A DNA stretch of 64,000 bases from Eukaryota sp. GEM-RC1 (Eukaryota): NCBI GenBank assembly GCA_040285855.1, contig JAUFOQ010000017.1:806001-870000 (forward strand), written 5' to 3'. Positions 28,001-64,000 of the stretch are shown here, in pieces. A program made the position numbers and the translations under genes. Position 1 is the first letter of the stretch, and each line of letters starts with the position of its first letter. Under the pieces are notes generated by a model that did no database searches, had not been told where the DNA came from, and worked only from the letters and a program-made list of their open reading frames with translations.

Positions 28001-30765
28001 AGTGATATCTCCTGAATAGTCTCCTTCAATCCAAGTAAAATCAGTAAGTAGTAAAGAAGAGTCAGGCACCACAGTAACAGTTCCTTTAACAAAATTGAAA
28101 TCTTTAATACTAAATGAACTGGAAGATGTGAAGGTTAAATCATTATGATTTTCAAACATCAATTCTGAGTTAAACCCATTCGAATTTACATCAAAAGTTG
28201 TTATTCCATCATTAATAAAGATAGAATCCGTAGAATCAGACAAAAATTCGACAAACTCAGCAAACTCTACAGTAGATTCTTCTGGAACTTTAAGAGTACA
28301 CATTGATTTACACTCAACTGTTAGAGAAACAAACTGAACAGCTTTGAGAGTTAGCTCAGAATTATCTAATAAATATAAATTAGACTTATCATCACCATAA
28401 ATTATATCAGAACAAAGTGATAATTTTCCAGACAATTCTCCTTTAGACCAGGTCAATGAATCAATTTCACAGTCATCACAATGCAGGTATCCCGTGCTTT
28501 GAACTTCTAAATTCTTAATGGTAGAGATGTCTCCCTCATCATCTTGTAGAGTTAGGGATCCTTCTACTATTAGAAGACCTTTAAACAACTCAGCGTTGAA
28601 CTGCTGAATAGAGTTGGAAAAGATGACGTTTTTGGTTAACGGAATTTTCAAGACTGACAACGTGGAAAAAGTGACAGCCATTGATTCTACTGTAGAAACA
28701 GACAAGGTGAAAGTTCCATCAAAGAACAAGATACCATCATTTGTGGTTTCAATATTATCGATAACAATGATATCGCCAGTAATAGCTCCTGAATTCCAGT
28801 TCAAACTGTTACAAGTGAGAGATCTCCCAGAATCTATAACAATGTTACCCTCACTTACCAAACTAGGTATAGAGTAATCATAGTCATTAAAGTTTAAAGA
28901 AGCATAATTGACAAATCCTGTAGTTATTTCGAAAAACTCGGTAGACATAGTGACAGTGGAACCTGACGACAAGGTGACGCAAGCATCAACAGAAGGACCA
29001 GTAATTTTAAACAAATTAGAAAAATAGTAGTTAGTGGACTCAAAAACTACATCACAGGATCCAAGACAATCAATCAGAACTGACATTGATGTAGTAGAGA
29101 ATCCAAATGTAAGTTCTGATTGTTCCTTCAGTATTAAATTATCAAGGACTTCATTATTTCCATGGAAAAAATGTGAATAGCTTAGCAGAAACACTTTTCC
29201 TAGTAAAGTTCCATAATAAAATTTCAAATCGATGCGGCATGTCACACAAATAAAGTCGCCAAATAATTCAACTATCGCTATATGTTCAAAAACGTCAATG
29301 AACTCAAGTACACCAAAAACAGTAAAATAACCGTCATTATAATCTTGTGACACAATTTCAGGGTTAGACAAAACAACATGATATCCTTCAGATATGACTA
29401 ATTCTGATTGAACATTGAATGGTAGAGTCAATTCAATATCACAGGAGAAGATCAGCTGACTTAGTGAGACAAATGGAACACTGTGAGTGGCGGAGATTTT
29501 AAAATTATCCGTAATTTCGATAATAGAGCCAGATACCGTTCCAGCTTTAAAAACAATTCCCCAACATGTAAAATACCAACATCAACTCTCAAAACTGCAT
29601 CATTTACTACAACATTTGGAATGAAGCTGTCGGGTTCTTCCTCCAAAGTAAATGTTGCGTCAGAATTAACATTGAAAATTATCATACCATGAGAATCCTC
29701 TCCTACAATATTGACAAACTGGTCAAAGTGCACCACGCCAGAACGTATTTCACAGTTTGATTCACAAAGAACATTGAAACCAGAAATAGATTCACACTCT
29801 AAATGAAGTAGTGTGTCATCCAAAAGATAGATGGGATCAGAATCGACAAATTCAATGTTTTTAATTTTTATGTTACCCTTTAATGAACCAGTTGATTCAC
29901 TGAGGTATAGATCACACTGATCATCCAGACACTCAATCGTTCCCCCTTGTAAGCGAGTAGTTGCTGATGAATCGAAAAAGGAAGGTAATCGGACAGTTCC
30001 CTTAACCAAGAATTCCAGTCCATCGTAGTCTCGTGGATTAAGATCACTTGTAAAGGTAAGTACAGCTCCATCAGAAATCTCGATCTGAGCTCCTTCTCCA
30101 AACGTAATTCCTGCAGGCATTGAAACTGAGTGGGAAACAGTTAACTTGTTTTGAATTGTTAGACAGTTCCCTGGAATAGATCCGGATTCCCAAATTAAAT
30201 TGTCAACTGTTAATTCAAAAATAGACATTTGTATTGTCCCTTGATTGTATAAACGAAGCGTCCCCAAAATGATAAGTGAAAGGTGAACACTAATAGGATG
30301 AGCAACATTAACATGGAGATCTAATGATGAAGAAGTTTGAAGCGTCAAAGAACTGCCGGATAATTGGTGTGGTTGGTCAAGAGAAAAGTCTTTGCCAAAA
30401 GCTCCAAATTCAACCTCAACAATGGAGGAAATGGAACCTTGAGTTTCCAAGGTCAGAGTTGCAACCGATTGGCATATCAAAAGAATGTCTTTAACACGGA
30501 AATGGTCTACAGGAAGTGTAATGTCGAAAGCCTTAAGAGCCACTGAATCAAATGTAGTTGAACATTCCGTACTTAGAATGGTGGACATCAAAACAGGGTC
30601 TCCACCACCATCATCATCAGGACATAGAGAAGAAGGGTTCTCACTTGCCAGGATTAGCCAGGACGAAGTATAACAGACACCAGTACAAGTCGACAGAAGA
30701 CATATATTAGAAGCAGATGAGCAAACAAAGAGTAGAAACAGACAAATAGCAACTAGTCTAACCAT
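7079..30765 (-). CDS. Giant (~7,900 aa) repeat-containing cell-surface/multi-pass membrane protein, split by 1-nt frameshifts
   Basis: Eleven abutting or overlapping minus-strand ORFs. Signal peptide MVRLVAICLFLLFVCSSA; 256-aa repeats; IPT/TIG-like motifs (PPTIQSISSP..VINGDDFG, PEILRLDPP..TVYGNNFG); LTEIEVYG; Cys-rich CPAGFF..CTACPLNSY; hydrophobic multi-TM C-terminus. Junctions checked at ~29550, 23291, 20220, 18685, ~15960 and ~13112 are each repaired by adding one base to a homopolymer. The ~10.75 kb junction needs more than one change. Confidence 0.8.
14390..28720 (-). repeat. Coding tandem array, 768-bp unit, ~18.6 near-identical copies plus diverged flanking copies
   Basis: Marker GAGTTGGAAAAGATGACG recurs 19 times at 767-768 bp spacing from ~14792 to ~28612. 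Confidence 0.97.
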
Positions 30766-33498: not shown

Positions 33499-33684
33499 CA
33501 ATGTAGCAGTTTGATTGACAAATTAATGATTTTTATATAGTCAGCTTATACTAGACACTATCCACAAATGCCTCTAAAATACTCTATGTATTACTCAGGC
33601 CTTCTGGCGAAAGGAAATCCATTGTCTAGCCGTGGAAGAAAGAAGTATGGATGAACAGGCTGAAAAACAGATTGGGTAAACATA

Positions 33685-34401
33685 TACCGGCAGCAGTAAT
33701 TCGTCTCACCACAGAATTAGTCTCAGTGAGACCAATTTTGTCCTTGGCACTTTCAGAGTTGCTGAAGTGAGACTAAGAATGTCCTCAAATCTCAAATACG
33801 CATACATTTCATATTTCTGTTTTCCATCCAGTTATCGACTAATCATCGTAAAGAAGTGTGTTCACATCAATAATAAATATACAAACTGTTTCTTCATAAC
33901 AAGCACATTCACATTAGTATTAAACAACCGTATTGATCACTATTGTTGTGCAAGCAAACATTTTGATGACAATTTTTAACAAATAATTCAAAACATAGAA
34001 TGAACCGTAATCCGATTGAGAAAATGGTCTTTTGAGGATCTACATTGTATAATAGACGATGAGTGAAAATGAGTGTCCTCCAACTTGGCTCCTGTCTATG
34101 TACTGACGAACATTGTTGACGAAACTCATGATCTTTGGATTACAGTTCAGTTGACGATCAGGAACACTTCGACACTGGAATTGATGAACAAGGACTCGTT
34201 TAGATGACGTGATTAAAAGAGGATAACGATTTTTGTTTAATATGAGTTTTACTAATACATATTTGTAGCCAAAAATAATTGAGGACATAATTACATGTAG
34301 TCTCACTACAAAATTAGTCTCAGTGAGACTAATTAAGGGATGGAGGGTCAATAATCTCAATACAAAATCAGTCTCAGTGAGACTAATTACTGCTGTTGGT
34401 G
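33685..34401. mobile_element. TA-flanked MITE (Tc1/mariner-like) with 23-bp palindromic subterminal sites
   Basis: TIR core CAGCAGTAATTcGTCTCAC (33691) / GTGAGACTAATTACTGCTG (ends 34395), extendable to TA on both sides. AATTAGTCTCAGTGAGACTAATT-type palindromes at ~33715, ~34313 and ~34366. Confidence 0.7.
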
Positions 34402-34424
34402 TAAATCCTTCTTTTGCCATTTTA

Positions 34425-37922: not shown

Positions 37923-40900
37923 ATGTCTACAGACAACAATAATTGTTGTGTCCCATGTGCTGCTGCGCCTTGCTACAGAGTGCTCCCGCACTCACCAAGG
38001 TCCCAGGACCCCACAATGAGCCGTTTTTTCTCGGAAGGTCCCGCCCTCCAAGGAACGGTTACATCCCTTTTAGAAGGTTCCGCCCTTCAAAGTCCCTCTT
38101 CTGGTGAAAATTCCGCCCTTCAAGGTTTGACTTCTCCAGAAGGTCCCATCCTTCAGGATACAGTTTCCGCGTCAGGTTACGCCCTGCAGAATTCTGTCTC
38201 TGAAACTTCCCCTCTTCCAGAGAAGGTTCAGAGAACAGCTCCTCCGGTGATTATAACCGTCGAGGATTCACCTTCCACGGTAGCTTCTGCACAGACAGGT
38301 AGTCGGAGTAGCACACCTGACACGTCACTACTATCGAAGATTCACCTCCCGCGACAACAAGTCCATCCTTTGAAAAATTAGGTCCCTGTTCAACTCTAAG
38401 CCAAAAGCTAAGAACACCTTTTTTCCTACTCTGAACATTGAGGAGACGATCACTCCCTCCGTAACTCCCTTGGTACCACCAGGAGGACTTACACTCCCGG
38501 AACGAGGCTCAGTCCCCCTTCCATCCAAAAAAGTCTTTGCCTAAAGCCTCTCGTAAGAGTGATTCCAAAAAGTCTCAGGTGGGTCCCATCCCTATTCCAA
38601 AGACATCTAAATCGCCAGTACCGGATACCAATCCAACTCGTGGTCATAGAGTAGCTAATCAACCAGTCATTCCCACCGTGGATCCTGATTTGGAAGATTT
38701 AGTTCCTTATGATGTTCCTGATGATGAAGAGTCTAGACGGCCGCCTCCCGTAGGCCCAGCTGACCATTCTCAACCACTGCCGTCAAGGCCTACTGGACAG
38801 GAGTTCCAACCTCCATCTATAATTCCCGTTCAAGGGTTTATACCAGTTAGATCCTCTATGACGGGTTCGTCTGAATTATTCCAGGCCCCGCCTGGCCCTT
38901 TCCAGCAAGGGTTAACCGACGACGAATTAAAACAAGCCCGATCGTAGAATGTTTCAAGTCGGACGTCAACAGGCGTATGATTTTCTATATGGTAGAAGAC
39001 CGGATATTGAGACCCCAGATCTCAGAAATCGATTCCCTAGACCAGCTTTGGCTGCCATAAGAGTCATTCGTCATATGTTCAATGACGAAGTTCCACCCCT
39101 GGAAGGAACATTCACGATCTTGGATGATCAGCGCAGACCCCATTCCATTCTTATGGACCCGAGCGAACCCGAATCTCTAATCCCCATTAGAAAATGTTGG
39201 GAAATCGTTCAGGATGTTCGCACTGCTCATCTTTTTACAAAGAACCACCATTCGAACCCAATCACCTCTCTGTCTTCCAAAGACACCGAGAGCTCCACTA
39301 CGGCGTTCGCAGACGTGGTCATCCAACCCACTGCCCTCAAACATAGAGCTCGAGTCGAACATGAAGCAGAACTCGCTCGTAGAGCGCAATCAAATCCGAT
39401 CCCTAAAATGAAGGAGGTTTCCGAACCCTCATTTCCTGCCGATCAACCATTTCCCAATCCACAACACGATGTTCTCTCCATAAGAGATCTCACCGGGACT
39501 CTCAGCTCATCGTCCATATCGAATTCATCTGGTATCCCGTCTCCCATGGCCGTATCAGCTTCCAATCCGATAGAGGAATCCCCTGAACCATTATCGCACT
39601 CAGTGGTGACGTTTCAACAGAAGTTCCCTGTTGATTCGTTAAAGAACTCAAAAATGCAACCGAAAATGCTTGAGAACTTAAAACCAGAGTCGTTAATCGA
39701 CTTCGTAACCGATTACCACCAATGGAGTTTAATGGATCCAAACCATAAAGCCCCCATTGGAGCCCCTTTCGGATGGCCTCGTCATTTTTTTGACTTGGTA
39801 CGAACTGCAGCCCAGTCTGCTGACCCTTCTTACGTGCAACGTTTTGTGAAATTCAACATACAGACACAACTGTCGATGTCTCGTGAATGGAACGGAACCA
39901 CTCCTCTGCAACTTTGGATCGCGTTGCTCAGACGCACACAGTATACAGATGTTACTGTGGCGCTCAACGAGTTGAACAAGATCAAGATGAAATGGTCAAT
40001 CAACGACCCAGAGGAAAGATGGGGCGATTACATCAACAGATTGCATCGCGTTCTCCAACGAACACAAGCCATTCTACCCAAGAATGAAAAGGTTATGACT
40101 GCTTTATCAGATAAAGCCATAATCAAAGCCATCATGGCCAACCTTGGAATAGTCTCCATTTGGCTCGAACTCTGGCCAGCATATCAGGACTCCAATGATA
40201 TTCAAATGCTTTTCTACCAAGTGAAGCAACAATACGACAATTGGTGCGACCGGTGGAAATCGTCAGCAGCATCTGTTCAAAATGAACAGCGTATTGCCGA
40301 GATCGCCAATCTCAGAGGTACAGCCACCTGGGAAGAACTCCCCAAATCATGGACCTCCAGACCTCTCATCCCCGTTCAATCAGAACCTGGGAAACCCCGA
40401 AGAACCTCTTCTAGTGTGAAACCCATGAAGAAGTCCCGTTCTGAAGAAAAAGACCCCAACGCCTGTAGATTTTGTGGCGAAAAGGGCCATTCCATCCTCC
40501 AATGCCCGGATCCCGAATGTAAACGTAGTGAGCTTCCTCTAGATCAACGTAATGCAAAGAGTACCGCCTCAAAACCATCTCGTAGTCATAGTAAGAAACA
40601 CTTGTCCCATAAAAAATCTAAATATTTCAATGCAAAATCATTTTAACAGCCTTGTGGATATATCTGATAACATCACATCTAGTCAATCAAATCCCACTTT
40701 GATTGAAACCAATCAATTCTTAAACCCATTGAGCAACATCAGTTCTGCCAATGGTAATACGAACTCACAAAGCCTGAATTCCATATTCAGCATAAGTAGT
40801 CAGAACCCACTCCCTCTTCTCAGCTGCAAACTGATGATTAACGGAATTCCGGTTCAAGGTTTTTGGGACAGTGAAGCAACCATGTCCGTAATCACACAAG

Positions 40901-42162
40901 ACCTGGCTACGAAGTGTAACATGACGCCTGTCAACAAAAATGTTCGCTTCACATCTGCAAACAATGTCGAGTCCCGGTCCTTGGGTAGCGCCCAGGGCAT
41001 CTTGACCTTCAATACCAGTAGTATCGCGTACCTGACACATGTGGATAAGACTTGACCAATAATACCTGGATCCAACAAACTATTATTGGGAATTGATCGG
41101 ATGAAACAGTTAGGACTACTGACCGAAGACGGACTAGTCATCCGGATTGACAAGGCCATCCTGGCCACTGTGAACGATGAGTCCGAGTTCGACTCACGCA
41201 TCATACAACCTCCCCGTAGCCATTCTATCGATAAATATTGTAGACTTTAATAAACATGTATTCGATTCAGGTTGCACAATCAAATTAGATGATGATAACA
41301 GATCCAAGAGCTTATTGAGCCTGCTTCAGGAGTTTTCCTCAATATTCTCAACAGCTCCTCACAAAGATGGCATCGATTGTCCTCCCATTGCGATTGACTT
41401 CTACAACGAAGAGTCCACTGTGAGACGAAAACCTCGACGGCTCAATCCAATGAAACCCATCTCATGAAATCCAATTGCCGAAGAGATTTTCGATGAACTT
41501 GTCCGTTAGGACTTTGCTGAGTTAACAACTCCCAATGGACAGTTCAGTTTACCGGTAGTACTGGTGGTCTATCCCGATCAACGTAAGCCCCGCCTTACGG
41601 GAGACTTCAGTGGTTCCGATGGAATTAACGCATTGACCCGAGTTGTCGAACCGAATCTTCCTAAGATCATCGACATCTTGGAATTTCTGAGTGAAGCTAA
41701 CTTCATAGCAACCTTGGATATTCCGAAAGCCTTCTGGCAATTGAACCTCGCAGAAAAGGACAGAGACAAGACAACTCTGGTAATCCCTGGCAAAGCCATC
41801 CGATTTAAAAAAGCTTGTTTTGGACTCAAGAACGTCCCTGCGATATTTCAAAATTTGATGTATGAAATATTCGACCATGAGGGCATTTTCATCTACATCG
41901 ATGACATCATCATAGTAGGCCGTACTTTCCAAGAATTTATGGACCGATTACGATTCGTTCTGACTAAAGCATTCACACGTAGAGTCAACCTCGGCCTACC
42001 CAAATGCAATTTCGTGACAAAGAGACACCCACTAAAGATCTTGGGTAGTAAGTTCGTTAACAATACACGCAGTATTGACCCTTTGCGTATCACAGCTCTC
42101 TTAGAGTTGCCCGTACCAACAACAATCAAAGAAGTTCGTAGCTTCGTGGGTTCGATTAACTA
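37923..42162 (+). mobile_element. Ty3/gypsy LTR-retrotransposon internal region (gag-protease-RT), inactive and 3'-truncated
   Basis: Gag with CX2CX4HX4C knuckle (CRFCGEKGHSILQC); aspartic protease GFWDSEAT..LLGID; RT LDIPKAFWQL, FGLKNVP, YIDD. In-frame stops at 41053, 41465 and ~41507. Ends abruptly at a TA-started palindromic element; no RNase H, integrase or LTR seen. Confidence 0.9.
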
Positions 42163-42330
42163 CAGCAATTGGTTTAATTAGTGTGGACCACACTAATTTT
42201 CATTACATTTTTCCGCTCGTAGAAATTAGAATTAGTGTGGACCACACTAATTATAATCCACACTAATTATAATTTAATAAAAATAGTGTGGACCACACTA
42301 ATTTTCTGAAACAAGAATTAGTGTGGATTG
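42163..42330. repeat. Cluster of 23-bp palindromes AATTAGTGTGGACCACACTAATT, probable end of a TA-flanked MITE
   Basis: Perfect copies at 42176-42198 and 42230-42252, a core copy at 42284-42300, and half-sites at ~42259 and ~42316. Begins TA|CAGCAATTGG right where the gypsy RT stops. Confidence 0.75.
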
Positions 42331-43197: not shown

Positions 43198-43887
43198 CAG
43201 GGACTGTCAAAAATATATTGCAATATATTGCAGGCCTAAATTCATTTGCAATACAGTATTGCAATACTGCAATATATTGCAATAATTGGAAGCAATATAA
43301 GTATTGTTGAATTGATCATTATTACTGTTAAGTCAGTTGACAACTCCCACAATCATCATCGCGGATCATCTATGTTGGCCAGCGTCTGGTTAATCATGTT
43401 GCGAACCAGTAGAACGTCTACAATAAGTGAAATCTGAAGTTCAAATCGGAGTAACTTGTCTCTCATTTGTGTAAAACGGTGGTTTAAATGCACTAGCAAC
43501 CATTTCAACATGTTGATGTTCAAAACGCAAACCGTAAATCAGTCCATCTACCACTTTTTAAAGCAAACAACTATGGCGCTTGGCAATCGGTTTTCGATTG
43601 GGGAGAAAAGAGCACAAGACATTCATTTCTTGTGAGAAAAACCAGCAATTTCAACTTCATATTAGCGATAAGATGTTAAACTGTTTCCAAATATTAATAC
43701 TTATATACACTATATTGTTAATATCCTTCGGGAAGTGAACAAAATTAGATGAGCATAAAGTATTGTTCAAAATAGAAATTATTGCAATATATTGCAATAC
43801 AAAATGAGGCTGCAATACAGTATTGCAATACACAATACACAATATTGCAATTATTGCAAAAGTGCAATATATTTTTGACAGTCCCTG
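43198..43887. mobile_element. hAT-type MITE (690 bp) with perfect TIRs and 8-bp TSD
   Basis: 25-bp TIR CAGGGACTGTCAAAAATATATTGCA at both ends; TSD TGTTCAAC at 43190-43197 and 43888-43895; TATTGCAATA subterminal arrays. Confidence 0.95.
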
Positions 43888-51318: not shown

Positions 51319-52869
51319 GGACTTAAGTAGATGTTGAGAGGGTGTTGCAAATCACGCAATTCTTTCCCAACACTAACAACACAACATTGTACTTGTCCCT
51401 TATGCAAGATGTGCTAGATAAGTGTAATATCGTTTCATGATGACAATGATCTCCATAGTTTGGTCTTTATTTTGATGTACATCCTCCATTTGGACAAATC
51501 ACGGCTGAAATTTGACTTGGTTCATCTTACCATTCTTGAACACTGCATTCACAAATCTCGTGACTTCTTCTCTTTCAAAGAATTCAATCAGAATTATCAC
51601 TTTTAGGTAATTACCACCCTCGTAAAGACTTTCAAGGACTTTCCACATTGGACGTTGGACTTATGCTGAGATGCTTTTTGATAGTTGTATAATTTCCCAA
51701 ACCCTCACTGTATAAGGTGTTCACTTGTTATGATGTCAAATCTTGTCAATGTTGGACTTCTTCTGTTACAAAATTTTTTGTACAATTTAATTTTCACAAG
51801 AAACCAAAACTTTGAGCTGAAGTTAATCACTTCTAGTTGATTCGATCAGTCTGGAACTTCTTTGGTTTTAAAATTTTGTTCTTTACAGAATCATCAATGC
51901 AATTCAACATCTTATAACATATATTCTCCTTGTTTTACTTTACATCATCTGATCGATGATCTTTTCTTTTTTCTATGTGGAGCGAAACGCTTTTTATTGT
52001 CTTTAAACTTATCACGATAATTCTCTCTTTTTGCACCTTTGTAATTTTGCCCCAATTATACCTGAAATATCTACTTAAATCTTTCTAATTCAGTAGTGTT
52101 ATTGGTTCTTTAGGTGAGTGCAATTCTGTCAACTATCGGTATGACGTTCCATTCTGTGATGAATCTGAGACATACTACTTTGGTTGAAGCTGGTGAATGT
52201 GTCTCTTTGACGTTCTCATAAAACGGAAGCAGCAGTTATGGAGACGATTTACCAACGTTTTGCTGTAAGTTTTCTATTTTTACCAGACTTTGCCAATATA
52301 GCATAAACAAGAATGCTCCTTCAGCTGCTAAATCTGGCAACATAATCGTGAGTACGCTAACACGGATCTGTAATTCTTGAGTCCTTTCTAAGGGTTTCAA
52401 AAGCGGCTTCCTTCAACATTTGATTTGGTAATGTATCAAACGTTCAATGCACTATTGTTGTCTCTGTTCCAAAAAACACAACATTGCTTGTTTTTATTGA
52501 CGACGAATCAGCTTTGGTTAAAATTAAAATATGAGATCAAGCTATTTCTCTTAATACAATGCTACAGCTTTATCGTCACCATAAACCACTAACTTCGGGA
52601 CCTCACGTCGTTGTTCACAGACAGCGTCATCGGTCAACAGAGCCGAGACGAATAAGAACCGACTCCTCTGAGCGTCTGCAGGTGTATATGTGGAGTCCAA
52701 TCGTTCAATTGTTGTTTCTTCACTGCGTTAGAGGCCGGAGAATTTAGAAGAGAGTTGATTTGTTTTTGCTTCACATCATGGGTTAGGACATGTTCAGTGA
52801 GCTTTGAAGAGGCTGCGTATTCTTTCACTGCCTTTTTACGGCTGCCGGGACACAACCGACAAATACGAA

Positions 52870-53520
52870 AGATGCCAATCAGGTGGGGAAGATATTTCAA
52901 ACAAGCCCCAGCCATTAAAAGCTGAAGATCGCCAAGAGTTTGAGGCTTCTTTCAAACAACTTCAAAGGTTCTAATTCTACGGGCCTTAGTCAATGTGGAA
53001 GTTAAATTTTGCAGGAATTCCGGGAAGGTACGACCAATACTTTAAAGCCCATCGATGTACTTATCCGAGAACGTGGTTCTAAAGACTGCTGTCATTCGGT
53101 CTGGAAAACATCCGGGGACATTTTTCAAGCCAAAAGCAGCTCTTGTGTACTTGATTGACATCCCAGGTATGCAGATCGTCGTTTTGGGTTGATCTTCCTT
53201 TCGAATTCTCAACTGGTGGAAGGCGCTTTTGAGATCGATAGTAGCAATGTATTTAGCTTCTCGTAACAGCGTGAAGATTTCTTCTACCCGAGGAAGGGCA
53301 GTTTCAAAGGTGATACTCAAATCATTGATTTTTGTATAATCACCACAGAGGCGAGGGCGTCTATTGGGGTACTCTTTTAGTACAATGGGGCTGGAGTAGT
53401 CGGAATTCGAGGGAGCTAGTTCTGCTACTCACTGATCTATCAGATCTTGCATCACTTCCTTAGCAATAGCAAGCTTCCGTGGGTTTAATGGTCGAGGCCT
53501 CAAACTCAAGAGTTTGATTT
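52870..53520 (-). pseudogene. Ty3/gypsy reverse-transcriptase remnant
   Basis: PRPLNPRKL..YSSPIVL..RPRLCGDY..IATIDLKSAFHQL..YTRAAFGLKNVP; frameshifted, and the YxDD motif is decayed (YIDG). Confidence 0.85.
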
Positions 53521-54199
53521 CAACGTTCTCTAAAGGTGTTGAGAACGGAAACGTTAGAAAAGCATTTCTGTCTGCAAATGGACAACGAGTAGTATGACAG
53601 ACATATACAGATTTATATGACTCAAAAACTGACACAACAACAAAGAAACTGTTCTCATTTCTATTTTGATATAAGGCGCTTTAAACACAAATGAATGCAA
53701 TCCATACTGGTACAATGTAGTATTTAAAAGATATCAAAATGTCGTACATCTACTTTTGAACTACTGTAAAATTTGTCCAGTATACGATTCAATTATTCTG
53801 GAAAACTTCTATAAAATGAAAACACATTGCGATTGGAGTACAAAGCATATAGCATTATTGCGTTTTTTTTTGTGTGATTCACGGGTATCACAAAATGCAA
53901 AAAAGTGTGATACCCAAGTATGCTTGAAACAGAGTACATATACTCTTTTCGACAAGTATCAACAGTAATAAAATCTATCACTGCTTGACAACATGAAACA
54001 AACTGAAGAAATCACTTTCTGTGTATGATTTCAAAAACGTGGGATTCGGGCAAGACTTCCGTTTCATTCACGTGTTTGCAAGGATCTAGATACAATTTGA
54101 GAATCCGAAGTTACAATCTGATCGGAATCTGTTTCTTCAATTTACTTAGCACTTGTAGCAATCTCCTCCAAGAATAACCAATCTTTAGCTTCTTCTTCT

Positions 54200-54688
54200 A
54201 TGAATACATCCAACTTTCACAAAATACAAGAGTTCCATCGTGTTTTTGACCATCCTGTTAACACTACTCCCCGTCATGATCTACTTGAAGACGAATCCTT
54301 GATGCAGCTACGTAAAGACTTAATTGCTGAAGAATTTGAAGAGTTTCAAGAAGCTATTAGGGATCGCTCTCTACCTGATGTTGCAGATGCTATAGGCGAT
54401 CTTCTTTATGTTGTCTATGGTGCAGCAGCTGTTCTTGGTATTGATGCGGATAAAGTATTCGACCAAGTTCATACTTCTAATATGAGCAAACTTTGTGCTA
54501 CGGAAGAAGATGCAGTAAGTACAGTGAAACATTACAAAGAGGTTTATGAGCGTGATGTCGACTACAAACCATCAATGAATGGCAAATGGGTTGTTTTTGA
54601 CAAGAACTCTGGTAAGATTCTGAAGTCTGTATCATTCAAAACTCCCTGTTTCGATTATCTGGAGAACAACGAGAAATCAAACGATTAG
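54200..54688 (+). CDS. MazG-like all-alpha NTP pyrophosphohydrolase (phage/giant-virus type)
   Basis: IQEFHRVF..LIAEEFEEF..DAIGDLLYVVYG..FDQVHTSNMSK..GKILKS motif series; intact 162-aa ORF. Confidence 0.85.
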   Translation: MNTSNFHKIQEFHRVFDHPVNTTPRHDLLEDESLMQLRKDLIAEEFEEFQEAIRDRSLPDVADAIGDLLYVVYGAAAVLGIDADKVFDQVHTSNMSKLCATEEDAVSTVKHYKEVYERDVDYKPSMNGKWVVFDKNSGKILKSVSFKTPCFDYLENNEKSND

Positions 54689-54929
54689 AGATTCGTGTGA
54701 GTATATGTCACTATTACTAGTAGTTATCAATTGTTCTTTCTTTCTATTTTATGCTTGTGAAATTGTACTACGATGTTAAGAGAGATATTCTTCGATAATG
54801 TGCATTATTTATTCCTGTTTTCACTCATAATTGATCTCCTTTTCTTTGAATCTCCTTACACTACAAATGGTTTCCTTGATTTACAGTGTTTCTGTTCACG
54901 ATTAGAATATCCTTTATTGAAATCATAGC

Positions 54930-55136
54930 ACTTAGTCCCTAAGATGTGAGAAAATCCCGATAGATCAGATACTGTCAAGAAGTATATCAGAAAAATACGG
55001 TGTGGAAATTGTGGAGAGAACTGTGAATTTCATTCCAAATGCATAAGGGCATAACCCTTCACATTTTCATGAGATAAACCACAGTTGACAAAGTCCTCAT
55101 TCGCAAAGTCTTTTAAGACGAGCTAACTTCATAGAT
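54930..55136 (-). ncRNA. Candidate Fanzor omegaRNA (guide RNA scaffold)
   Basis: Immediately 3' of the Fanzor stop. Long nested hairpin at 55019-55086 and a second hairpin at ~54956-54993, both with G-U pairs that form only on the minus strand. Ends not defined. Confidence 0.5.
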
Positions 55137-58100
55137 TCAAGATTCCTGATCTTTCTGGTTTACGTTTACGTGTGAGTCCTTGGGTACATATTTCTTAGGC
55201 TTATTTGGACAAGTTGCTCTGTTATGCCCAGGTTGAAAACATATACCACACTTGTTAGGACCTCTGACTTTTGTTAGAGGACGCTTTGCCTTACCCTTAC
55301 CCTTACTCACAGTCTTTTTCTTAGGAATCTGATCTGTATTCCCGCCATCCACGACAGGTGTTGTTTGAGATTTTGGTCTCTCGAGGATGGCAGGTCTACC
55401 TTGACCTTGAATTGTTCCATTTACAATATTGTAAATATTGATAGCAGAATTGAAATCTCTATTCCAGAGGACATGACATTTAGCACATTCAACTAAGCCC
55501 CATGGTGAGACTTTGTTGTTCTTCAATCTTTCTTTCGAAAATGTCAACTGGTCTGTCCATTCTTCATCAAAGTTACGCTCCACAATATTGTCTAATTGAT
55601 TGTGTTCAATAATTTCCTTTTTAATTCTTTCTCTTCCTTCTGTAACTTCTTCTTCCAATTAGGATCAGTGACTTTGATCCTTTCAGGATTGGAACAGATA
55701 CCTTCGTCATTTCTGGAAACACATGCAGAGCAACATTTGCTGGTCTTAAATTCATCAACTAGGAACACTTTAAATCCAAATTTTCTCAATAATTTCCGAA
55801 TTGAAGCACCTTTTACAGTCGATGCTTTACCTCTTCTTCGACGAAAAGCAGTGTCGTTCCAGTCTCCATACCCAACAACGACTTCATCTGGGTTTCCAAA
55901 CTGGAGAGTAAATCTGTGAAGCATGTTTTTCTCACTTCGTTCCTTTCTTGAATACTGTGTTAAGCGTCTACGTCTAAACCACTTTTCTTCGTAAATTCCT
56001 TCAGTATTTCTTTGATCAGTAGTGGGTGATCGTAATAAAGAACAGGTAATTTCTTTACCAAGAACAAAAGCAGAATACTGAGTCAATTCACAAGATTTAC
56101 TACCTGGCGAGTTAGAGCCCCATTGATCTAAAATTTGTTGCCCATTTATGTCAATGCGTCTGCCATCTGGAATGTGAATAAATTGGGTAGATTATTGTTG
56201 TAACCGTTCAGATTCAGATAAACGGTGGAGATTATATCGTCTTATTTTCTTCTCCAGCTTCCTCTTCTTTCTCTTAGCTCTTTTTCTTTCCTTCCTTGTT
56301 TTTTTCTTTTCCATGGAGACTTTTTAATATCGGCATTGCGCTCCCCCAGCAGTGTATCTGAATACTTTCCAATCATCACGATTTTTCAACTTGACAGTTG
56401 ATGGTTTGTCAATAGTAGGTGCGTCTTTCCAATCCTTCAATTCCTTTTTTAATTTTTTCAAGCTTCCTTTTTTCTTTGATGATTTTGGAGAAATCTTTCT
56501 TCTTCTGATTTTGGCTGATGTATCGAAACCTTCGATTTCCTTTTCCTCCTTAGATTTTAAAGAAGCACAATACATCAAATCATGCTGATTAGGATCAATA
56601 GCAACAATTCTTTTGGATTTCAAATTTAAGTTTTGAATTTCTGTGGAACTCAAAGAATCAATGTACCTTTCAGTAGCTGTGTAGTCAACTGCTTTCACCT
56701 TCTTATGAGGATTTCCTCTCGCATCAAGCAGATCTTTCCGCATCATCATTAAATTACAGCTAACTCCATCTGTAGAAATAGAACTGTATTTGAAGTCATG
56801 AGACAATGACTTTGGAAGACACTTTGGTTTCAAAACTGAGTGCCAAATATCTTTTCGAACGTCATCAAAGCTACCTTTAATTTCTGATGCATAAACTTTT
56901 TTAAACCATGTAGTATCCAATCTGATATGATTAGGAATCAATGATTTTGTCAGAGGAAAAGGATTATTGGCAGTAACACCAGTACAAGAGTCTTCAACAA
57001 GACGTTTCAAATACACTGCATGACTTAAGAATTTCAAAGGATCTACTTTTTCAGCATAATAGATTGTTTTCTCCATTTTACCTTCAAAAAAAGTAAACAA
57101 ATAATTAAAAAATAGTAAACTCAGTCTAGAATTGGGATCAGGAAACATTTCAACATCTTGAAAATTAATTTTTGAAATTTCCCCATTAATGATCAACTGT
57201 CTGACTTCATTAAGCTTTGTACACAACTCTTGTCGTTGATTCTTATCAGTAAGCTTGTTAAGTCTATCTTTTTCAGGGTAACCAAATTAAATACTTGAAA
57301 AACATATTCGTGAAAGTGTTCACTCATGTTATTCTTGTAATTTGTAATAATTTCTGTAGCCATGTAATGCAATATAGGAGATAAACGATGGCTACTGGGA
57401 AACACAATCCTATCAAGTCCAACGGAATCAGCAGCTAGTTCTAAACGAGGAATGTAATGAAACAATAAGTGTTGAGCAAACTGATTTTGAGTTGAGCCAT
57501 CATTTGTGTTAGAAATTATGTTTGTTAACGATTCTTGTACAGTCTCAATATGATTCTGATTGTTTACAAGTTTGTTGTCCCTAATCGTCATCATAGACAA
57601 CACTTGTTCCATTGATTTCAACGTAAAAAAATTCTTCCAGTCTGGCAATTCAATTTTGGCAGTTTGAATTTTAGTCCAAAGGTCAGGTTCAGGTTTAGGT
57701 TCATCACTCGCATCTTCAATATTTTCTAATTTAATAGGAGGAGTAGCAGCATGGATAGACTCTGAAGGTACATCTGTTTCTTCTTCAGTTGACTCATCTG
57801 TATCAGAATTCATTTCTTCCTTAACAGTAGAGATGGGAGCCGGCTAAATTTAGCCGGCTCAGCCGGCTGTCCCAAATTGGAAATATTTCCAGCTGCAAGC
57901 CGGCTGGCTCAAATAACTTTTAGCCGGCTCAAGCCGATTATTGAAATTTCATTTTTGACAGCTGAAATATTTATAATTCGTTCATGAATTGATACAAACA
58001 TAACATTGCAGGACATTAAATATTAAAACTAAAGAATTTCTATAAAAATAATCTTTATCAACATTAGCACAATAATCAGCAGTTTACATTCTTCACATCA

Positions 58101-59418
58101 ATTTGCAATGGACATTACTTTGGTCTCTGACAATGAAGAACCTATAGAAGTATCTCAAAGCAACTCTTCCAACGACATAGTTTCCTTAGAACTCCTCAAG
58201 CCTCTTCCCAAAGATATTGCTCCTTTCTTCCAACAGGCGGCCAAGAAACTCCCAAATGGTGATATAGAAGTGCGTACTGAAACCATCGAATGTAAATTTT
58301 GTGTCTCTAAGCGCTACAAGTCATCGACAGCCACAGGTAACTTGCGTTCTCATGTGAGAAAGCACCATAATAAGCTCTATGAATCTGAAGTTCCTCCCCT
58401 TAAAAAGAGTCGACAAATAACTGAATATCTTCAGCCAACAGAACGCTCCTTCAAAAAAGATCCAAGTGGAGTAATTCCTCTCATTGTTGATCATATTCTT
58501 GCAGGAAGTTAGACATCCGCTATTAACACGCCTTCAGGAGGAGTATAGCAGTGAAAATGGAGGAAGAGAAGTGAGAAAGAAGACCAAATCCTTCAGAGCT
58601 AAGCTTAAGATCATCAAAGAATCTGTGTCCCAGAACAGTACCACAGATGAACGTTCTGACTCTGAGGATCTATCAGTTGAAAAGGAGTTAGATACGTATC
58701 TTTCTATGTTTTCGGCCGAGAATGACAATCCCTTAGATTGGTGGAGAGTAAACTCTGAAAACTTTCCTCTGATGAGCAAATTTGCAAGGGATATGTTAGC
58801 TGTTCAAGCGACCTCCGTTAGTAGTGAACGATTGTTTTCACAAACTGGTAACGTAATAACTAAGAAGCGTTCCCGGTTAGATGACACCACGGTAACTGCA
58901 TTAATGTGTTTGCGGTGCTGGCTTTTGAACGAAGAAGATCAGAAAGACGATGAGTAGAGTAGCGATAATTGAAGAATAGGGTAGAATTTATGTATAACAA
59001 TAATGAACCACATAAAACAAATCTATCAAAGAAAAGACACTGAAAGCATATGCTTTGACAAAACAGTTAAACAATAAATCTACATCAAACTCATTGCGGC
59101 TGAGCCGGCTAAAGCCGGCTTGAGCCGGCTAAACTATGTTGGAAGCCATAGCCGGCTAACTAGTACCTGCAGCTGAGCCGTGAGGAAAATTTGAGCCGGC
59201 TCCCATCTATACTTAACAGTTACATTTGGAACAGTAGCAGGCAGTAACTTCTGAATGTAACCTAAAATACCAGAATGGTGAAAATTATGAACAAAAAAAT
59301 GTTTCAAAAAGAGAGTACTACGGACTCTTACTTGGTGAGCTCTCTTAACACGAGATTCAATAAATTTAACCTTCGCTTTGGACACAACATTGTCTAGTCG
59401 TTTCTTAACCACTTTCAT
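55137..59418 (-). pseudogene. Fanzor (eukaryotic TnpB-like RNA-guided nuclease, Fanzor1-like), ~960 aa, disrupted by a hAT insertion
   Basis: N-terminal KVVKKRLDNVV..RVKRAHQVRVRSTLFLKHFF; FKYSSISTDGVSCNL; RuvC-I RIVAIDPN (D 56594-6); VVVGYGDW; RuvC-II FLVDEFKTSKCCSAC (E 55751-3); CAKC..WNRDFNSAINI (D 55455-7); C-terminal CGICFQPGHNRATC. Interrupted by hAT 57828-59211, two A-run frameshifts, and in-frame TAAs at ~56324 and ~56192. Confidence 0.93.
57828..59211 (+). mobile_element. Internally deleted hAT transposon (1,384 bp): BED finger plus dimerisation domain, no catalytic core
   Basis: TIR TAGAGATGGGAGCCGGCT / AGCCGGCTCCCATCTATA (1 mismatch); TSD CTTAACAG at 57820-57827 and 59212-59219; ORFs with CKFC..HVRKHH and PLDWWR..FPLMSKFARDMLAVQATSVSSERLFS. 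Confidence 0.96.
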
Positions 59419-61705
59419 TGGTGACTTTGAACGTAATGTTTGTTTTTGGGATCCAATAGGTCAGCCAACAAGTACTCAATCAGAGGTAATTGTTGAATTG
59501 AGTTGATCAACAATAGCGGTCTTGTCGATTCCTTGGCCCAAAGTTCATTTACTTTCTCCAAATTTCTTACAAATTTCTTTTTAATCTTATCGACCTTCAC
59601 TTTGGGATTGTCTGGAACTAAAACATTAATACTGTCAATTATGCCATGCAAGTTTTGGACATTATTGACCAATTGAACTTCATCAGGATCAGAGTCATGA
59701 TTAAGTTCTTCCAAGCGTTTGACAGTTTCATTTTTAGAAAAATTATTCATTTCAAGAAAAATTTGAACAACATTTTCCAAAAAACGGCCACCAGTAAAGA
59801 CATAAAAATTCTTCAGTACAGCATTCAAATCAAGACTAAAAAACGGACCAAAAGTTGTTTCCTTACACCATTTGTTGAACCAAAAGGGAATGTAGGGTTT
59901 AAATTCTGGAAAAGTAAACGTTGTATTGATTTTGAGGACTTGACAACGTGATACAAGAAAGGGAAATGTATCTAAGTGAAAGTCATAACTCACAAACAAT
60001 CGTGGACAATGTTGAGTAATGAAGGAAATGAAGTTTTTAACCATACTGGATTCACTATCTGAAATATGTAAAGTACACAAATCCAAGTTTGTAGTATCAA
60101 AATTGCCATGAGAAAATAAATGCTTTTCATTAAACTCATTGTGATCAATGATCTGGATGGAAATTGATACAATCGGATCAACAGAAGAATCACGTTTAAC
60201 TTCTAATTGATCTTCAGCTTCACCTTCAACAGTTTCAATGTAATCATCATCTTCTTGAACAAGTTGAACATTTCTGCCAATAATTCTTTCTTTTTGGCAA
60301 AATCACTTTGAACATGAATTAAACAAAAAGTTGGTAGATTGTTCCAAAGTAGAGGGGATTTAAGAAAGTCTTGAATTTGTATTTCTTCTTCTATAGGCTC
60401 AGTGTGTAGATTTACTTCCATTTTTTGGATTTCTTCTTGAATTGGCGATGGATACGACATAATGGAGGCCTGTGATTTTGGTGGTAGTTCAGATGGTGGT
60501 AGTTCAGATGGTGATGATAGTTCAGATTGTGGTAATTCCGATGATTCCAATGTGGACATACGGCGGTGAGTCTTTCGTATTGGAGTGTCACCAGTTGAAA
60601 CAAAGGAGCTGGTAGTTCTAAATTTATTTCGTTGAATTAAAGGTGAACCTCGTGGTGATGGAACATCTGAAATTTTGGCTTTCCTTTTTTTAGTGCTTAA
60701 ACCAGTAGATGTTTTAGTACTAGCAAGACGTGAACCTGTGAGAGGAATTGAAGTGGTTGGATGTTCTTTACCGGCAGGAGGTTGAATGGGTAACGATGGA
60801 ACAATAGGAGCTACTGTGGTTTGACGTTGTTGTAGATAAAGTGTCCTTTGTTGAGACAAGACCTCCAGAATTTCTTCACGAAATATGTCTGCTTGAAGTT
60901 CAATGTTCACTTGGACCAAATCAGACTCCATATACATCAGAGACGGAACATACATGAGTCTTTTAAAAAGTTCAATATATTTTTGAATATACGCAATGAC
61001 ATAAACTCCACAGTCGTTAGCAGACTGTGTTTTAGTCACAGGCACATAACGGAAAACATATTCCAATGGCATAAGTACTTCGGATAATATGTCGACAGCT
61101 GATTTTACCATAGACTTACTCATATCGACGGTAGTTAACATTGGATCAATGAAGATCCATTCCTTTTCACAACAGTCTATAATGGCTAAACCCCAATGAG
61201 AACCAGTGACACCTTCTCTGGAATAATTAGAATTTCTAGTCATGGTATCACTAAGGGGAACAAAGAGGTATTTGGAGTTTGTGATTTGATTTTTCTCAAT
61301 TTTCGTCAACAACCATTGATCTAGCGGGACATCTGGTGAAACAATGTATTGAAGCCATGTGGTCGGATGGATAAACATGCTTTCAAAGTCTAACCCTGCT
61401 TCTTGAAATATCACTTTACAGTACTCCACTATCGCTTCGTCATCAACCCATTGATTAGGATAAACTGAGTTTACGCCTTCTTGAGTTACGGGTCCTGGAT
61501 TGGATTCAATATCACCATCAGCGGTGAGGTCTTTTGGGAACGGAGGATGGGAAGGGATAAACAGGGGAGACGAGTACTTCATGGCAACAAATGTATGTGT
61601 TGATAAAACACAGAATGAACTGTCCTTTTCTAAACTCAACTGAGCCCGAAACCGTGCAATGGAGTCAGTCACAAGTTGAGTCAGATAAGGACAGAATGGC
61701 GGCAT
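59415..61705 (-). CDS. 2A-peptide-led Ulp1/SENP (C48) protease plus linker; probable N-terminal half of the Fanzor polyprotein
   Basis: DLTADGDIESNPGP (61490-61531), then WVDDEAI..LFVPL..GSHWGL..FIDPM..QSANDCGVYV (His-Asp-Cys). One added base at ~60300 joins it to ORF 59415..60086. Confidence 0.85.
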
Positions 61706-61827
61706 TATCGAAGCAACAGAAGCGGAGGCAGTGGAGGGAAAGAACTGTCCTTATCTAAACTCAACTGAGCCCGAAACCGTGTAATGGAAACAGTCACAAG
61801 TTGAGTAAGATAAGGACATGATGGCGG
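61617..61827. repeat. Two 86-bp direct repeats (61617-61702, 61742-61827), each a long hairpin
   Basis: 7 mismatches between copies; arms TGTCCTTATCT..ACTCAACT / AGTTGAGT..AGATAAGGACA. Confidence 0.9.
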
Positions 61828-61974
61828 ACAACATCTGTTTGGATGCAGAACAAACGACATTTATACTGTAGGAGGAAGGAAAATGAAATCCCACACAGAC
61901 TGTAATGGACATGTGTGTGTGAATTCACGTGTTAAAAAACGAAATCTGTAATAAAGTCTATATCAGAATTTCCC

Positions 61975-63334
61975 ATGTCCTACTCAATCTTCAAACTCAG
62001 AAATACTTCTGAACAAGAAAGTCGTTCCCGTACCATCAAAACATATATGAAACTTGTTGTAAAGCTTGCTGATAAGCATGCAGTTAACTTGTCACTTGTT
62101 CTTCTTCCTTATGGAACATACAATTCATGGAGAACTAAATCCATCCACATAACGGAAGTGTCAACATCTGACTTACCAGATGATCTTAAAAAGGGTACCA
62201 TGGATTTTTGCCTCAACTACAAATCAGCCGTTGCCATTGTGCTAGATGTTGATCTAGAAACTGTTCATCTCTTTCCTTTTGATGGTTCTTATGAGAAGCG
62301 TGACATATCTCTTCCACTTCCTTCAACAACTTCAACTCTAAATCATCTTAAGGATCTACTCAAAGACGTTAAACGAGTTACAATTGCTCGTTCCCCTCCT
62401 CCTCCTCAGCCTCAGTCTCCTCCTCTTTTACATGATTGTGACAATACTCGCTTTGACGATACTCCATCGCAAGTCGTTTTTCCTTCACCAAAACGTCGTA
62501 TTGATAACTTCGCAATCAATCATATTCATTCTATTTTCTCTGAACCATCTGAAATAGTTCCTGTTCCAGTCAGTGATAATGCTAATTTATCTAAACCTAT
62601 GAAACGCAAAAAACAACGTAACCCGTTGATTCTTTCTGTAGATTTAATCAGTGATCAGTTTTACATAAATTCAAAATTAAAATTTGAATTTAGTGATATT
62701 GAGAAAATGTTGACAAAGGATGATAGGGAAGGTAAAACACAACTCTTGTTGAGTTCTGAACTTGATTTCATTGTGATGCTTGCATTCCAAAAATTTAAAT
62801 CAAGGAGGTACAAATTCCTGCAATCTCAAGAAACTCAACAGTTGGCAGGTGATCCAATATGCTATGCCTTACATTCTGGTAAGGCTATTGTCGATACACT
62901 AAAATCAGGAAAAGAATTCTTGCCCCATTATGTTTGGTGAAAGAACATGTTCCTGGTGATGCAGGATCTGGTCATTGGATTCTTATTGAATTGTTTCTAA
63001 ATGAAGCAAATGTTTTATTATTCAATATTTATGATTCTTTGGATTATTCATTAACCACTGAATTAATCGTTAATCCTTTTAGAACTGTTTATGGATGTGG
63101 GGAAACAAATCTGTTTGCAAGATTACCAGAGTATAAGGTGGACTACTATATACCTTTTGCACAGTCAACATCGTCTCTTATCTGTGGATGGATTGTCTGT
63201 TTGAATGTTACTTTAATTTTACTAGGATTAATGGTTGATGCACGTCAGGAACAAAATCAGACAAAATTAAACACTAACAGATCAAGAAAAAATCTATGTC
63301 TTGTTATGTATGATCTACTTCAGAGTGTACAACC
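61975..63334 (+). CDS. Second Ulp1/SENP (C48)-like protease, C-terminus interrupted by a hAT copy
   Basis: ORFs 61975..62940 and 62934..63377 join with one extra A at ~62910, giving SGKRILAPLCLVKEH..GHWILI..IYDSL..AQSTSSLICGWIV (His-Asp-Cys). Confidence 0.75.
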
Positions 63335-64000
63335 TAGAGATGGGAGCCGGCTAAATTTAGCCGGCTCAGCCAACTAGCCGAGCCAGCCGGCTGTCCCAAA
63401 TTGGAAATATTTCCAGCTGCAAGCCGGCTGGCTCAAATAACTTTTAGCCGGCTCAAGCCGATTATTGAAATTTCATTTTTGACAGCTGAAATATTTATAA
63501 TTCGTTCATGAATTGATACAAACATAACATTGCAGGACATTAAATATTAAAACTAAAGAATTTCTATAAAAATAATCTTTATCAACATTAGCACAATAAT
63601 CAGCAGTTTACATTCTTCACATCAATTTGCAATGGACATTACTTTGGTCTCTGACAATGAAGAACCTATAGAAGTATCTCAAAGCAACTCTTCCAACGAC
63701 ATAGTTTCCTTAGAACTCCTCAAGCCTCTTCCCAAAGATATTGCTCCTTTCTTCCAACAGGCGGCCAAGAAACTCCCAAATGGTGATATAGAAGTGCGTA
63801 CTGAAACCATCGAATGTAAATTTTGTGTCTCTAAGCGCTACAAGTCATCGACAGCCACAGGTAACTTGCGTTCTCATGTGAGAAAGCACCATAATAAGCT
63901 CTATGAATCTGAAGTTCCTCCCCTTAAAAAGAGTCGACAAATAACTGAATATCTTCAGCCAACAGAACGCTCCTTCAAAAAAGATCCAAGTGGAGTAATT
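63335..64000 (+). mobile_element. Second, near-identical copy of the 57828 hAT element (runs off the window end)
   Basis: Starts TAGAGATGGGAGCCGGCT; same sequence as 57828 onward except 17 extra bp in the AGCC subterminal array; BED-finger ORF starts at 63632. Confidence 0.96.

Follow-up and report, generated by a model that had tools for sequence, protein, structure and literature searches.

The characterized Fanzors are standalone nucleases, and their role in eukaryotic genomes is still debated. The Fanzor1 genes of Spizellomyces punctatus (SpuFz1) and Parasitella parasitica are described as standing alone, flanked by inverted repeats, and a scaffold of 75 nt follows their stop codon (PMC10432273; here and below, statements about cited papers rest on the available parts of their text). 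The Fanzor1 of Mucor circinelloides, MCi-2, is multicopy: its 3' parts are nearly identical, its 5' parts can be exchanged, and clear inverted repeats are lacking (PMC3627910). In Ginger1 and Mutator elements, Ulp1 or OTU domains are fused to transposases, and a role in repair has been proposed for them (PMC2836005). The 2A motif occurs in several single-ORF retrotransposons of the non-LTR (non-long-terminal-repeat) type (Ingi, L1Tc, Rex1, L2, and CR1; PMC3708506). Here we analyze a stretch of 64,000 nucleotides ("the window") from Eukaryota sp. GEM-RC1 (contig JAUFOQ010000017.1 of assembly GCA_040285855.1, positions 806,001 to 870,000), an organism that has been linked to a free-living metamonad flagellate (10.1101/2023.05.03.539051). 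Region 55137-61860 of the window is one copy of a multicopy element, and its coding sequence is visible as seven open reading frame (ORF) pieces on the minus strand. On balance, we favor the reading that this is a likely mobile element which encodes, likely in a single frame, a Fanzor1 nuclease together with a SENP8-like protease and a likely inactive exonuclease-like domain, all behind a 2A motif.

Domain order and reading frame

With good confidence, we predict from the sequence that the element encodes a swappable tandem-repeat leader, a 2A motif, a C48 protease, a Ser/Pro linker, a domain resembling the exonuclease of family-B DNA polymerases (PolB), a Fanzor1 nuclease, and a CCHC knuckle. 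The features are as follows (pLDDT is the predicted local distance difference test; TSD is a target-site duplication).

61738-61860, minus strand: upstream ATG (61860) and first leader repeat unit (61738-61827), from self-BLAST and the starts of family models
61541-61705, minus strand: second leader repeat unit and leader, with ATG 61705, from the sequence
61490-61540, minus strand: 2A-like (StopGo) motif of the RNA-virus type, FPKDLTADGDIESNPG-P, from the sequence; kept in family models with unrelated leaders
60830-61489, minus strand: C48 (Ulp1/SENP8-like) cysteine protease, Pfam PF02902 at 4.8e-7, above the cut-off
Residues of the protease, minus strand: His 61198-61196, Asp 61147-61145, Gln 61027-61025, and Cys 61012-61010, from the sequence
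60330-60829, minus strand: Ser/Pro-rich, likely disordered linker, from the sequence; pLDDT below 50 in a paralogue model
59446-60329, minus strand: PolB 3'-5' exonuclease-like domain (PF03104), likely inactive, with helices after it; an A-run near 60290 breaks the frame
59212-59445, minus strand: Fanzor1 N-terminus, before the hAT insertion; aligns with the first residues of standalone viral Fanzors
57828-59211 (57820-59219 with TSDs), plus strand: inserted non-autonomous hAT with inverted ends
55383-57819, minus strand: Fanzor1 body, with REC/WED, RuvC, and C4 zinc finger, from phmmer, Foldseek, and motif positions
Motifs of the Fanzor1 body, minus strand: TDG 56776-56759, RuvC-I Asp 56596-56594 (DPN), RuvC-II Glu 55753-55751, and RuvC-III Asp 55457-55455, from the sequence
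56298-56350, minus strand: G-run/A-run region with two opposite frame breaks in the window copy, where most paralogue models stop, from comparison of models
55137-55382, minus strand: basic tail, CX2CX4HX4C knuckle (55250-55209; weak zf-CCHC_2 match, 0.0025), and stop codon
54930-55136, minus strand: 3' region, the expected position of the omegaRNA, with a hairpin at 55030-55075; a candidate only

The initial annotation, which was made from the window alone, called for uninterrupted copies to be sought, and it could not see that the locus belongs to a family of dozens. Protein searches returned near-identical gene models, all from Eukaryota sp. GEM-RC1, and the clusters of these models add dozens more (two of the clusters were covered to 15 of 18 and 15 of 26 members). 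Our family set has 67 records, and 32 of these cover RuvC-I (31 other gene models and the window's own). The named models are spread over 11 contigs, which differ in length. Identity to the window is 90-98% in subfamily 1. In subfamily 2, it is about 40% in the protease and exonuclease and 50-66% in most of the Fanzor, and the domain order is unchanged (P0092, P0025, P0072, P0007, and P0048). A profile-free search of 1.84 billion representative proteins with the first ORF gave 34 matches. They comprise additional forms of the 2A-protease, of which some have two protease domains, along with RNA-virus-like proteins and a small number of outside SENP8-like ones. We found no close relatives in viral and metagenome contigs with a search that needs short exact peptide matches and misses distant relatives.

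The initial annotation had joined the pieces into one frame by supplying one base at each of four homopolymers. At each of these junctions, paralogue models read across without loss of residues. (Counts are over the 67 family records; 32 further proteins from the first-ORF search are outside the count.) Junction 60300 is crossed in 12/13 covering models, junction 59445 in 14/15 (from both subfamilies), junction 57262 in 11/15 (one of the four misses is the window's own), and junction 55620 in 11/14. Outside the count, P0091 is broken at 60300 in the way the window is, and P0092 continues across. A homopolymer break at 60300 was correctly called, but the paralogues read SDFAKKERI, so the break lies in an A-run (near 60290) and not in the T-run that had been repaired to give SDFCQKERII. 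Some of the paralogue models skip stretches as introns (P0022, P0024, P0029, and P0045); the read-throughs that we counted keep the full junction sequence.

Overlapping models also tie the domains together. Six models (P0022, P0027, P0029, P0032, P0033, and P0039) have the 2A, the protease, the exonuclease-like domain, and the Fanzor N-terminus in one frame. P0060 and P0070 extend from the exonuclease domain past RuvC-I, and P0075, P0082, and P0083 extend from the WED to the knuckle or stop. The overlapping models total 1,724 amino acids, of which the Fanzor and tail account for about 970. The fused frame of 2A, protease, and Fanzor that was first proposed is thus borne out by models that cross every junction.

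The initial annotation had also left room for two coupled genes, with a protease-exonuclease gene that stops at 59415 and a Fanzor that restarts at an overlapping ATG (as ATGA). The stop at 59415 is present in the window and in one paralogue model (P0023), and several models begin with MKVVKK. But the models that cross junction 59445, from both subfamilies, refute this two-ORF alternative, and we give it almost no weight.

Why is the frame broken in so many places? Breaks are found at most long runs in some paralogues, and they are commoner as the run lengthens (A5, 2/28; an A6 cluster, 3/26; T7, 3/10 and 5/13). In an unrelated tandem array in the window, 4/18 units are one base short. The assembly behind the named paralogue records was made from R9.4 nanopore data and corrected with short reads (10.1101/2023.05.03.539051). 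Assembly error is therefore the simplest cause, and we take the breaks at A/T runs to be long-read assembly errors.

The window copy itself is dead through the hAT insertion. The insertion is flanked by an 8-bp TSD (57820-57827 and 59212-59219), and together with one TSD the hAT measures 1,392 nt, which is divisible by 3 and leaves it in frame. The site is empty in 13/13 paralogue models, and removing the hAT and one TSD restores the frame as originally described. The in-frame TAAs, which had been given as a second sign of a dead copy, do not hold up. TAA 56324-56326 falls between two nearby opposite frame breaks, where paralogues read YTAGERNADIKK, so it is a by-product of the breaks and no true in-frame stop. 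TAA 56192-56194 is Tyr in 6/6 covering paralogues. (We also considered an alternative genetic code, with TAA read as Gln or another residue, and rejected it, because both TAAs are explained by the paralogues and paralogue models end normally.)

In Pfam, the ORFs of the inserted hAT match the hAT dimerisation domain at 3e-26, and there is a weak match to a BED finger (0.002). This hAT is present once more, at 97% identity, from 63335 on (63335-64000, plus strand). The window copies are short, with the BED finger and the dimerisation domain, and no catalytic core was seen in them. Given the 97% identity of the two copies, this appears to be a recently active non-autonomous family.

The nuclease and its nearest relatives

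Several lines of evidence place the nuclease with Fanzor1. First, phmmer with the reconstructed Fanzor found SpuFz1 (1.4e-13) and the Parasitella parasitica protein PpFz1 (1.1e-9), and the only PDB sequences matching at E < 1e-8 are Fanzor1. Second, a Foldseek search with the predicted structure of P0083, which is low-confidence (mean pLDDT of 44), gave Fanzor1 at ranks 1-7 and only Fanzor1 at E < 0.001; Fanzor2 appeared at 0.05. Third, in Fanzor1 proteins the RuvC-II Glu is rearranged and comes six residues ahead of the zinc finger, RuvC-I reads DP(G/N), and the WED contains TDG (PMC10711439, PMC13565253). All of these are present, as DEFKTSKC, DPN (as in SpuFz1), and STDGVS. A published spacing motif, D-X(125,275)-[TS][TS]-XX-C4-X(5,50)-RD (PMC3627910), has all of its residues here and a C4-to-RD spacing of 5, but the first spacer is 283, or 8 over the range, due to an insertion after RuvC-I.

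The functional residues are also conserved in the family. The RuvC-I Asp is kept in 32/32 covering models, the RuvC-II Glu and the RuvC-III Asp in 14/14 each, and the catalytic Cys of the protease in 12/12, although the covering patterns behind these catalytic-residue counts favor similar sequences. The CCHC knuckle is kept in 13/13, and the last two ORFs have weak Pfam matches to TNB and CCHC. By every protein feature tested, then, the nuclease classifies as a Fanzor1, and RNA guidance is predicted. The RuvC D-E-D, CxxC/CxxC, and knuckle of the initial annotation are all present.

With SpuFz1 (PDB 8GKH) and PpFz1 (PDB 9CF0), the nuclease has in common the TDG, the DPN, the position of the Glu six residues ahead of the zinc finger, and the RD. 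Unlike those proteins, it has about 750 amino acids of leader, 2A, protease, and exonuclease-like domain upstream and a knuckle downstream, and neither inverted repeats nor a scaffold were found. The nearest outside relatives are giant-virus Fanzor1 proteins (P0002-P0004, and 68 viral loci, L001-L068), which are about 30% identical and collinear over the whole nuclease. These are mostly unfused ORFs of 650-675 amino acids, the right end being conserved and lying some 50 nt past the stop, and 0/68 loci have a 2A motif or a protease or exonuclease match to the family. (In these loci, the right end is followed by variable flanks, with a structured 3' RNA, and only a few, such as L001 and L057, have a matching left inverted repeat within 600 nt. 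They are a ready set for work on the omegaRNA and the target-adjacent motif, or TAM.)

MCi-2 resembles the element in its variable 5' parts, its multiple copies, and its lack of clear inverted repeats, but the available text reports no protease, 2A, or exonuclease fusion, and its 5' parts are kilobases of other transposon sequence (PMC3627910). Ginger1 and Mutator also join a protease for ubiquitin-like proteins (Ubl) to the DNA cutter of a mobile element. Their partner is a DDE transposase, whereas here it is an RNA-guided-type nuclease and the protease is N-terminal, after a 2A. Among non-LTR elements, NeSL has an N-terminal Ulp1 domain, L1 has 5' monomer arrays, and CCHC knuckles are found in ORF1. 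The virus-like 2A is a likeness to the non-LTR retrotransposons; unlike them, the element has no reverse transcriptase or APE domain in its frame, and no poly(A) tail was seen after its stop.

No Fanzor fused to a protease, an exonuclease, or a 2A came up in full-text literature searches (which did not reach subscription papers, Repbase Reports, or figures). Term searches of the available text of PMC3627910, PMC10711439, PMC13565253, PMC10432273, and PMC10530073 found no protease fusion, and the available parts of PMC6338049, PMC12338488, and 10.64898/2026.06.03.729735 contain nothing on a Fanzor fusion. A Fanzor1 mobile element with this multi-domain architecture is not described in the literature that we searched, which agrees with the earlier impression that the combination was new.

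Could the locus be what is left of an endogenous giant virus or Polinton-like element, and not a transposon in its own right? Giant-virus contigs contain the nearest outside Fanzors, the exonuclease domain is of the PolB type, and a MazG/PRA-PH gene adjoins the 3' end. Nevertheless, we consider a viral remnant very improbable. A Pfam scan of 25 window ORFs found no viral capsid or replication family, and none of the viral Fanzor loci shares the 2A, protease, or exonuclease. Furthermore, the flanking genes (Dcc1, leucine-rich repeat (LRR), surface-protein, and LTR-retrotransposon genes) indicate a eukaryotic chromosome.

Leader, 2A, protease, and proposed action

The 71-amino-acid leader of the initial annotation does precede the 2A, but 71 amino acids is only a minimum. 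Two 90-bp units (61738-61827 and 61613-61702) are 91% identical over 90 bp by self-BLAST, and three family models start with MSFVLHPNR. The leader probably starts at ATG 61860 and has both units. Across the family, leaders are tandem repeats of unrelated units (with periods of, for example, 27, 38, 42, and 46 amino acids). One leader can precede various proteases, one protease can follow various leaders, and the switch is at the 2A.

The GDIESNPG-P skip motif is present as originally noted, with the strict motif DIESNPGP at 61513-61490; the D(V/I)ExNPG-P core has a conserved upstream context. The six frames of the window contain 2 strict 2A motifs versus 0 in 100 base shuffles. The form [FW]xxDLTxDGDxExNPGP is common to the family and its RNA-virus-like matches, and the RNA-virus-like polyproteins align with the family only at the 2A. 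With a DNA pattern for the 2A core, 8 viral loci match at the motif; tblastn found no Fanzor in them, and extensions past the motif were weak (E ~1e-3). In every family model that has both a leader and a protease, the 2A sits between them. As the 2A precedes the protease, it is predicted to shed the leader and not to free the nuclease. We infer that it sheds an exchangeable promoter/leader module and leaves the protease and nuclease joined.

Two other sets of 2A motifs came to light. P0117 has a tandem-repeat leader, a 2A, and a SENP8-like protease from outside the element's clade, so the leader-2A-protease module may exist in another lineage. And at 300-600 and 980-1100 of the window (minus strand), there are two further 2A-like motifs, one strict and one decayed to NPDP, along with a repeat unit that resembles the leader of the sister model P0110. 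This appears to be a decayed copy of a related 2A-protease element.

The C48 protease is as the initial annotation described it: the His-Asp-Cys triad is accompanied by an oxyanion Gln and a CE-clan fold, and the domain is confidently modelled (pLDDT of about 80-95 in a paralogue model). The label "deSUMOylase" fared less well. When a family-only profile was compared to the PDB, SENP8/NEDP1 was best (7.7e-12, versus 7.3e-9 for Ulp1). SENP8/NEDP1 was also the top structural match (Z of 16.9, root-mean-square deviation of 3.1, 185 residues aligned), with NopD tied at 16.5, and Foldseek ranks yeast Ulp2 equal to SENP8. A caveat is that the element protease is 17-20% identical to SENP8/NEDP1, and the protease domains of the element group together (99/99), apart from the outside SENP8-like proteins; this clade has deep subgroups, one of them with Ser in place of the Cys. 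Since SENP8/NEDP1 is best by profile and by structure, deSUMOylase is not the best guess; the protease looks nearer to the deNEDDylase SENP8/NEDP1 than to SUMO proteases.

Between the protease and the Fanzor, there is a Ser/Pro-rich linker, as reported, but this stretch also holds the PolB-exonuclease-like domain, which had been missed. PF03104 (DNA_pol_B_exo1) matches the ORF at 59418-60302 with 27.6 bits (the cut-off is 23). It is above the cut-off in 6 paralogues as well, and the Atlas score is 0.92. The other similarities are weak sequence matches to archaeal and viral family-B polymerases and a weak structural match to a viral DNA polymerase (Z of 7.3), from a low-confidence model (pLDDT of 40-60). 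The ExoII Asp aligns, gap-free, to a Thr, and the ExoI and ExoIII acids were not seen by eye. Pfam found no polymerase domain after it in the window pieces or the paralogue models. The exonuclease-like domain is therefore likely inactive.

The initial annotation envisioned a virus-style polyprotein, in which the nuclease could carry the protease to its target or be released by it. In the case of release, the C48 protease would cut its own product and free the Fanzor, as its adenoviral and poxviral relatives process their precursors. The fold is indeed shared with viral processing proteases (Z of 9.5-13.6), there are long disordered linkers between the domains, and the Fanzor starts exactly where its standalone relatives start. 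However, the best matches are Ubl-specific cellular proteases and not viral ones, and the 2A before the protease would remove only a variable leader and separate no enzymes. Furthermore, C48 proteases follow a Gly-Gly rule for their cleavage sites, but no Gly-Gly is conserved between the domains: the only one in P0032 is inside the exonuclease-like domain, and it is kept in P0072 but is Arg-Gly in P0001, P0007, and P0025. We consider self-processing quite unlikely.

Slightly less probable still, in our view, is that the N-terminal domains were captured as cargo and have their own role (such as general suppression of the host's Ubl signalling), that they are fused to the Fanzor only through sharing its promoter, and that tethering to the cut is irrelevant. 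The many forms into which the protease has radiated include tandem and inactive ones, no Fanzor is seen downstream in several of the sister models (although they may be truncated), and Ulp1 is a common transposon cargo (PMC2836005). But cargo could have been released by a 2A after the protease, and in every model with both, this available skip motif lies before it instead. The fusion has also been kept in two subfamilies that are 40-65% identical.

How might a tethered element work? In our proposal, the 5' tandem repeats would serve as a promoter/leader module that can be exchanged, and the 2A would give a constant N-terminus whatever the leader. The remaining protein of about 1,650 amino acids would bind an omegaRNA from the 3' end of the element, perhaps with help from the CCHC knuckle. 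The Fanzor would cut element-free sites, which would favor copying of the element into the break (homing), a role that has been argued for Fanzors (PMC13565253). The tethered protease might act on repair or silencing proteins at the break, or on the fusion protein itself, and strip them of NEDD8, ubiquitin, or SUMO; for Ulp1 domains joined to transposases, an action on repair has been proposed (PMC2836005). The dead exonuclease fold would hold on to DNA ends and leave them undegraded.

If so, this would be a natural case in which an RNA guide aims an effector enzyme and in which a 2A makes a protein independent of its swappable leaders. The ideas of Fanzor homing and of a transposon Ulp1 acting on repair at the cut would both be testable in one protein, and the fusion has been kept in two diverged subfamilies and dozens of copies. 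The many near-identical copies with different flanks should make it easier to read the omegaRNA, the guide, and the TAM from the genome. A bolder idea, which we regard as doubtful, is that this is a transposase-free class of element in which the Fanzor opens sites, a deNEDDylase or deubiquitylase steers repair, and the 2A frees the leader to be swapped. If the features that resemble non-LTR elements (5' monomers, 2A, Ulp1, and CCHC knuckle) reflect copying via RNA, it would be the first retro-mobilised Fanzor; a 2026 review states, in its available text, that there is no evidence for one (PMC13565253).

Points against the reading, and the surroundings of the element

A number of observations weigh against our reading of the element. 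The paralogue support is at the level of predicted protein only, and the stretch from the protease to RuvC-III is not covered by any one model (the longest has 1,040 amino acids). The in-frame ATG at 59418 could additionally give a standalone Fanzor. The trend of breaks with run length is not clean, as one T6/T7 site is broken in 0/7. The same GDIESNPGP core did not skip in some of the contexts tested in PMC13405545 (the window's 2A peptide is not among the tested rows that were searched in its supplement). The second protease domain of subfamily 2 has Ser in place of the catalytic Cys. As for mobility, Pfam found no transposase or Rep-helicase in the frame or in 13 nearby ORFs, other than the inserted hAT, and there is no reverse transcriptase in any of the frame pieces or paralogue models scanned. 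The ends of the element were not found: the flanks share only scattered inverted matches of 10-11 nt, and the 5' end may lie outside the window. Nor was the omegaRNA located. The 3' region has no Rfam match and folds no better than shuffles, save for the hairpin at 55030-55075 (z of -3.1, but picked after seeing the fold; wider windows give -1.3 to +2.1). A covariance model from 32 viral 3' ends had its best hit, at E of 0.36, far from the locus and nothing in 54900-55140. The four steps of the mechanism are putative. Finally, the A-run near 56305 (56324-56300) is crossed in only 5/25 models (one of the misses is the window's own), and no read-through in subfamily 1 shows the residues expected from a simple under-called A-run.

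This A-run deserves further comment. In subfamily 1, 15/23 models share one shifted tail and 4/23 read through, by two routes. We still think that a sequencing error is likely. The main rival is that the fusion is the same but the run is a real programmed -1 frameshift or slippage site. Most of the product would then stop after RuvC-I and be unable to cut, and a minority would be the full nuclease, which would limit toxicity. The widely shared tail fits with this, and the run fits A-AAA-AAA, a slippery heptamer motif. However, purine-rich sequence follows, and it forms no stable stimulator in the vicinity of the run (z of -0.89). Also, the run would be the longest in the frame, and other long runs break in many models too. 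At the matching site in subfamily 2, P0072 reads through (P0046 does not), and the standalone viral Fanzors are continuous there. A programmed frameshift is therefore unlikely, as is the regulated output that it implies, and we retain the single frame with an error at the run.

Several other features of the window lie outside the element. An intron-free gene for a MazG/PRA-PH nucleotide pyrophosphohydrolase (54176-54688, plus strand) is convergent with the 3' end of the element and is possibly of bacterial or viral origin. A reverse transcriptase fragment (53042-53428) lies past this gene; LTR-retrotransposon pieces are found at 52600-53430 (minus strand) and 38900-42200 (plus strand), with a gag-like ORF, an aspartyl protease, and a reverse transcriptase. 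On the other side, a divergent ORF (61975-63335, plus strand) is broken near 62900 and is cut by the second hAT at 63335; it may or may not belong to the element. By eye, it has the His-Trp, Asp, and Gln..Cys-Gly spacing of a second C48 protease, but we rejected this candidate because the profile probabilities are 0.2% and 0.6%, and the ORF has no match in the PDB or the Atlas. Farther away, about 19 tandem repeats of 768 bp (256 amino acids) at 14400-29000 (minus strand) lie within a very long surface-protein-like gene, which ends in Cys-rich and membrane segments. Two short elements, at 43198-43887 (with 25-bp perfect inverted ends) and 33683-34403 (with 27-bp imperfect ones), are likely miniature inverted-repeat transposable elements.

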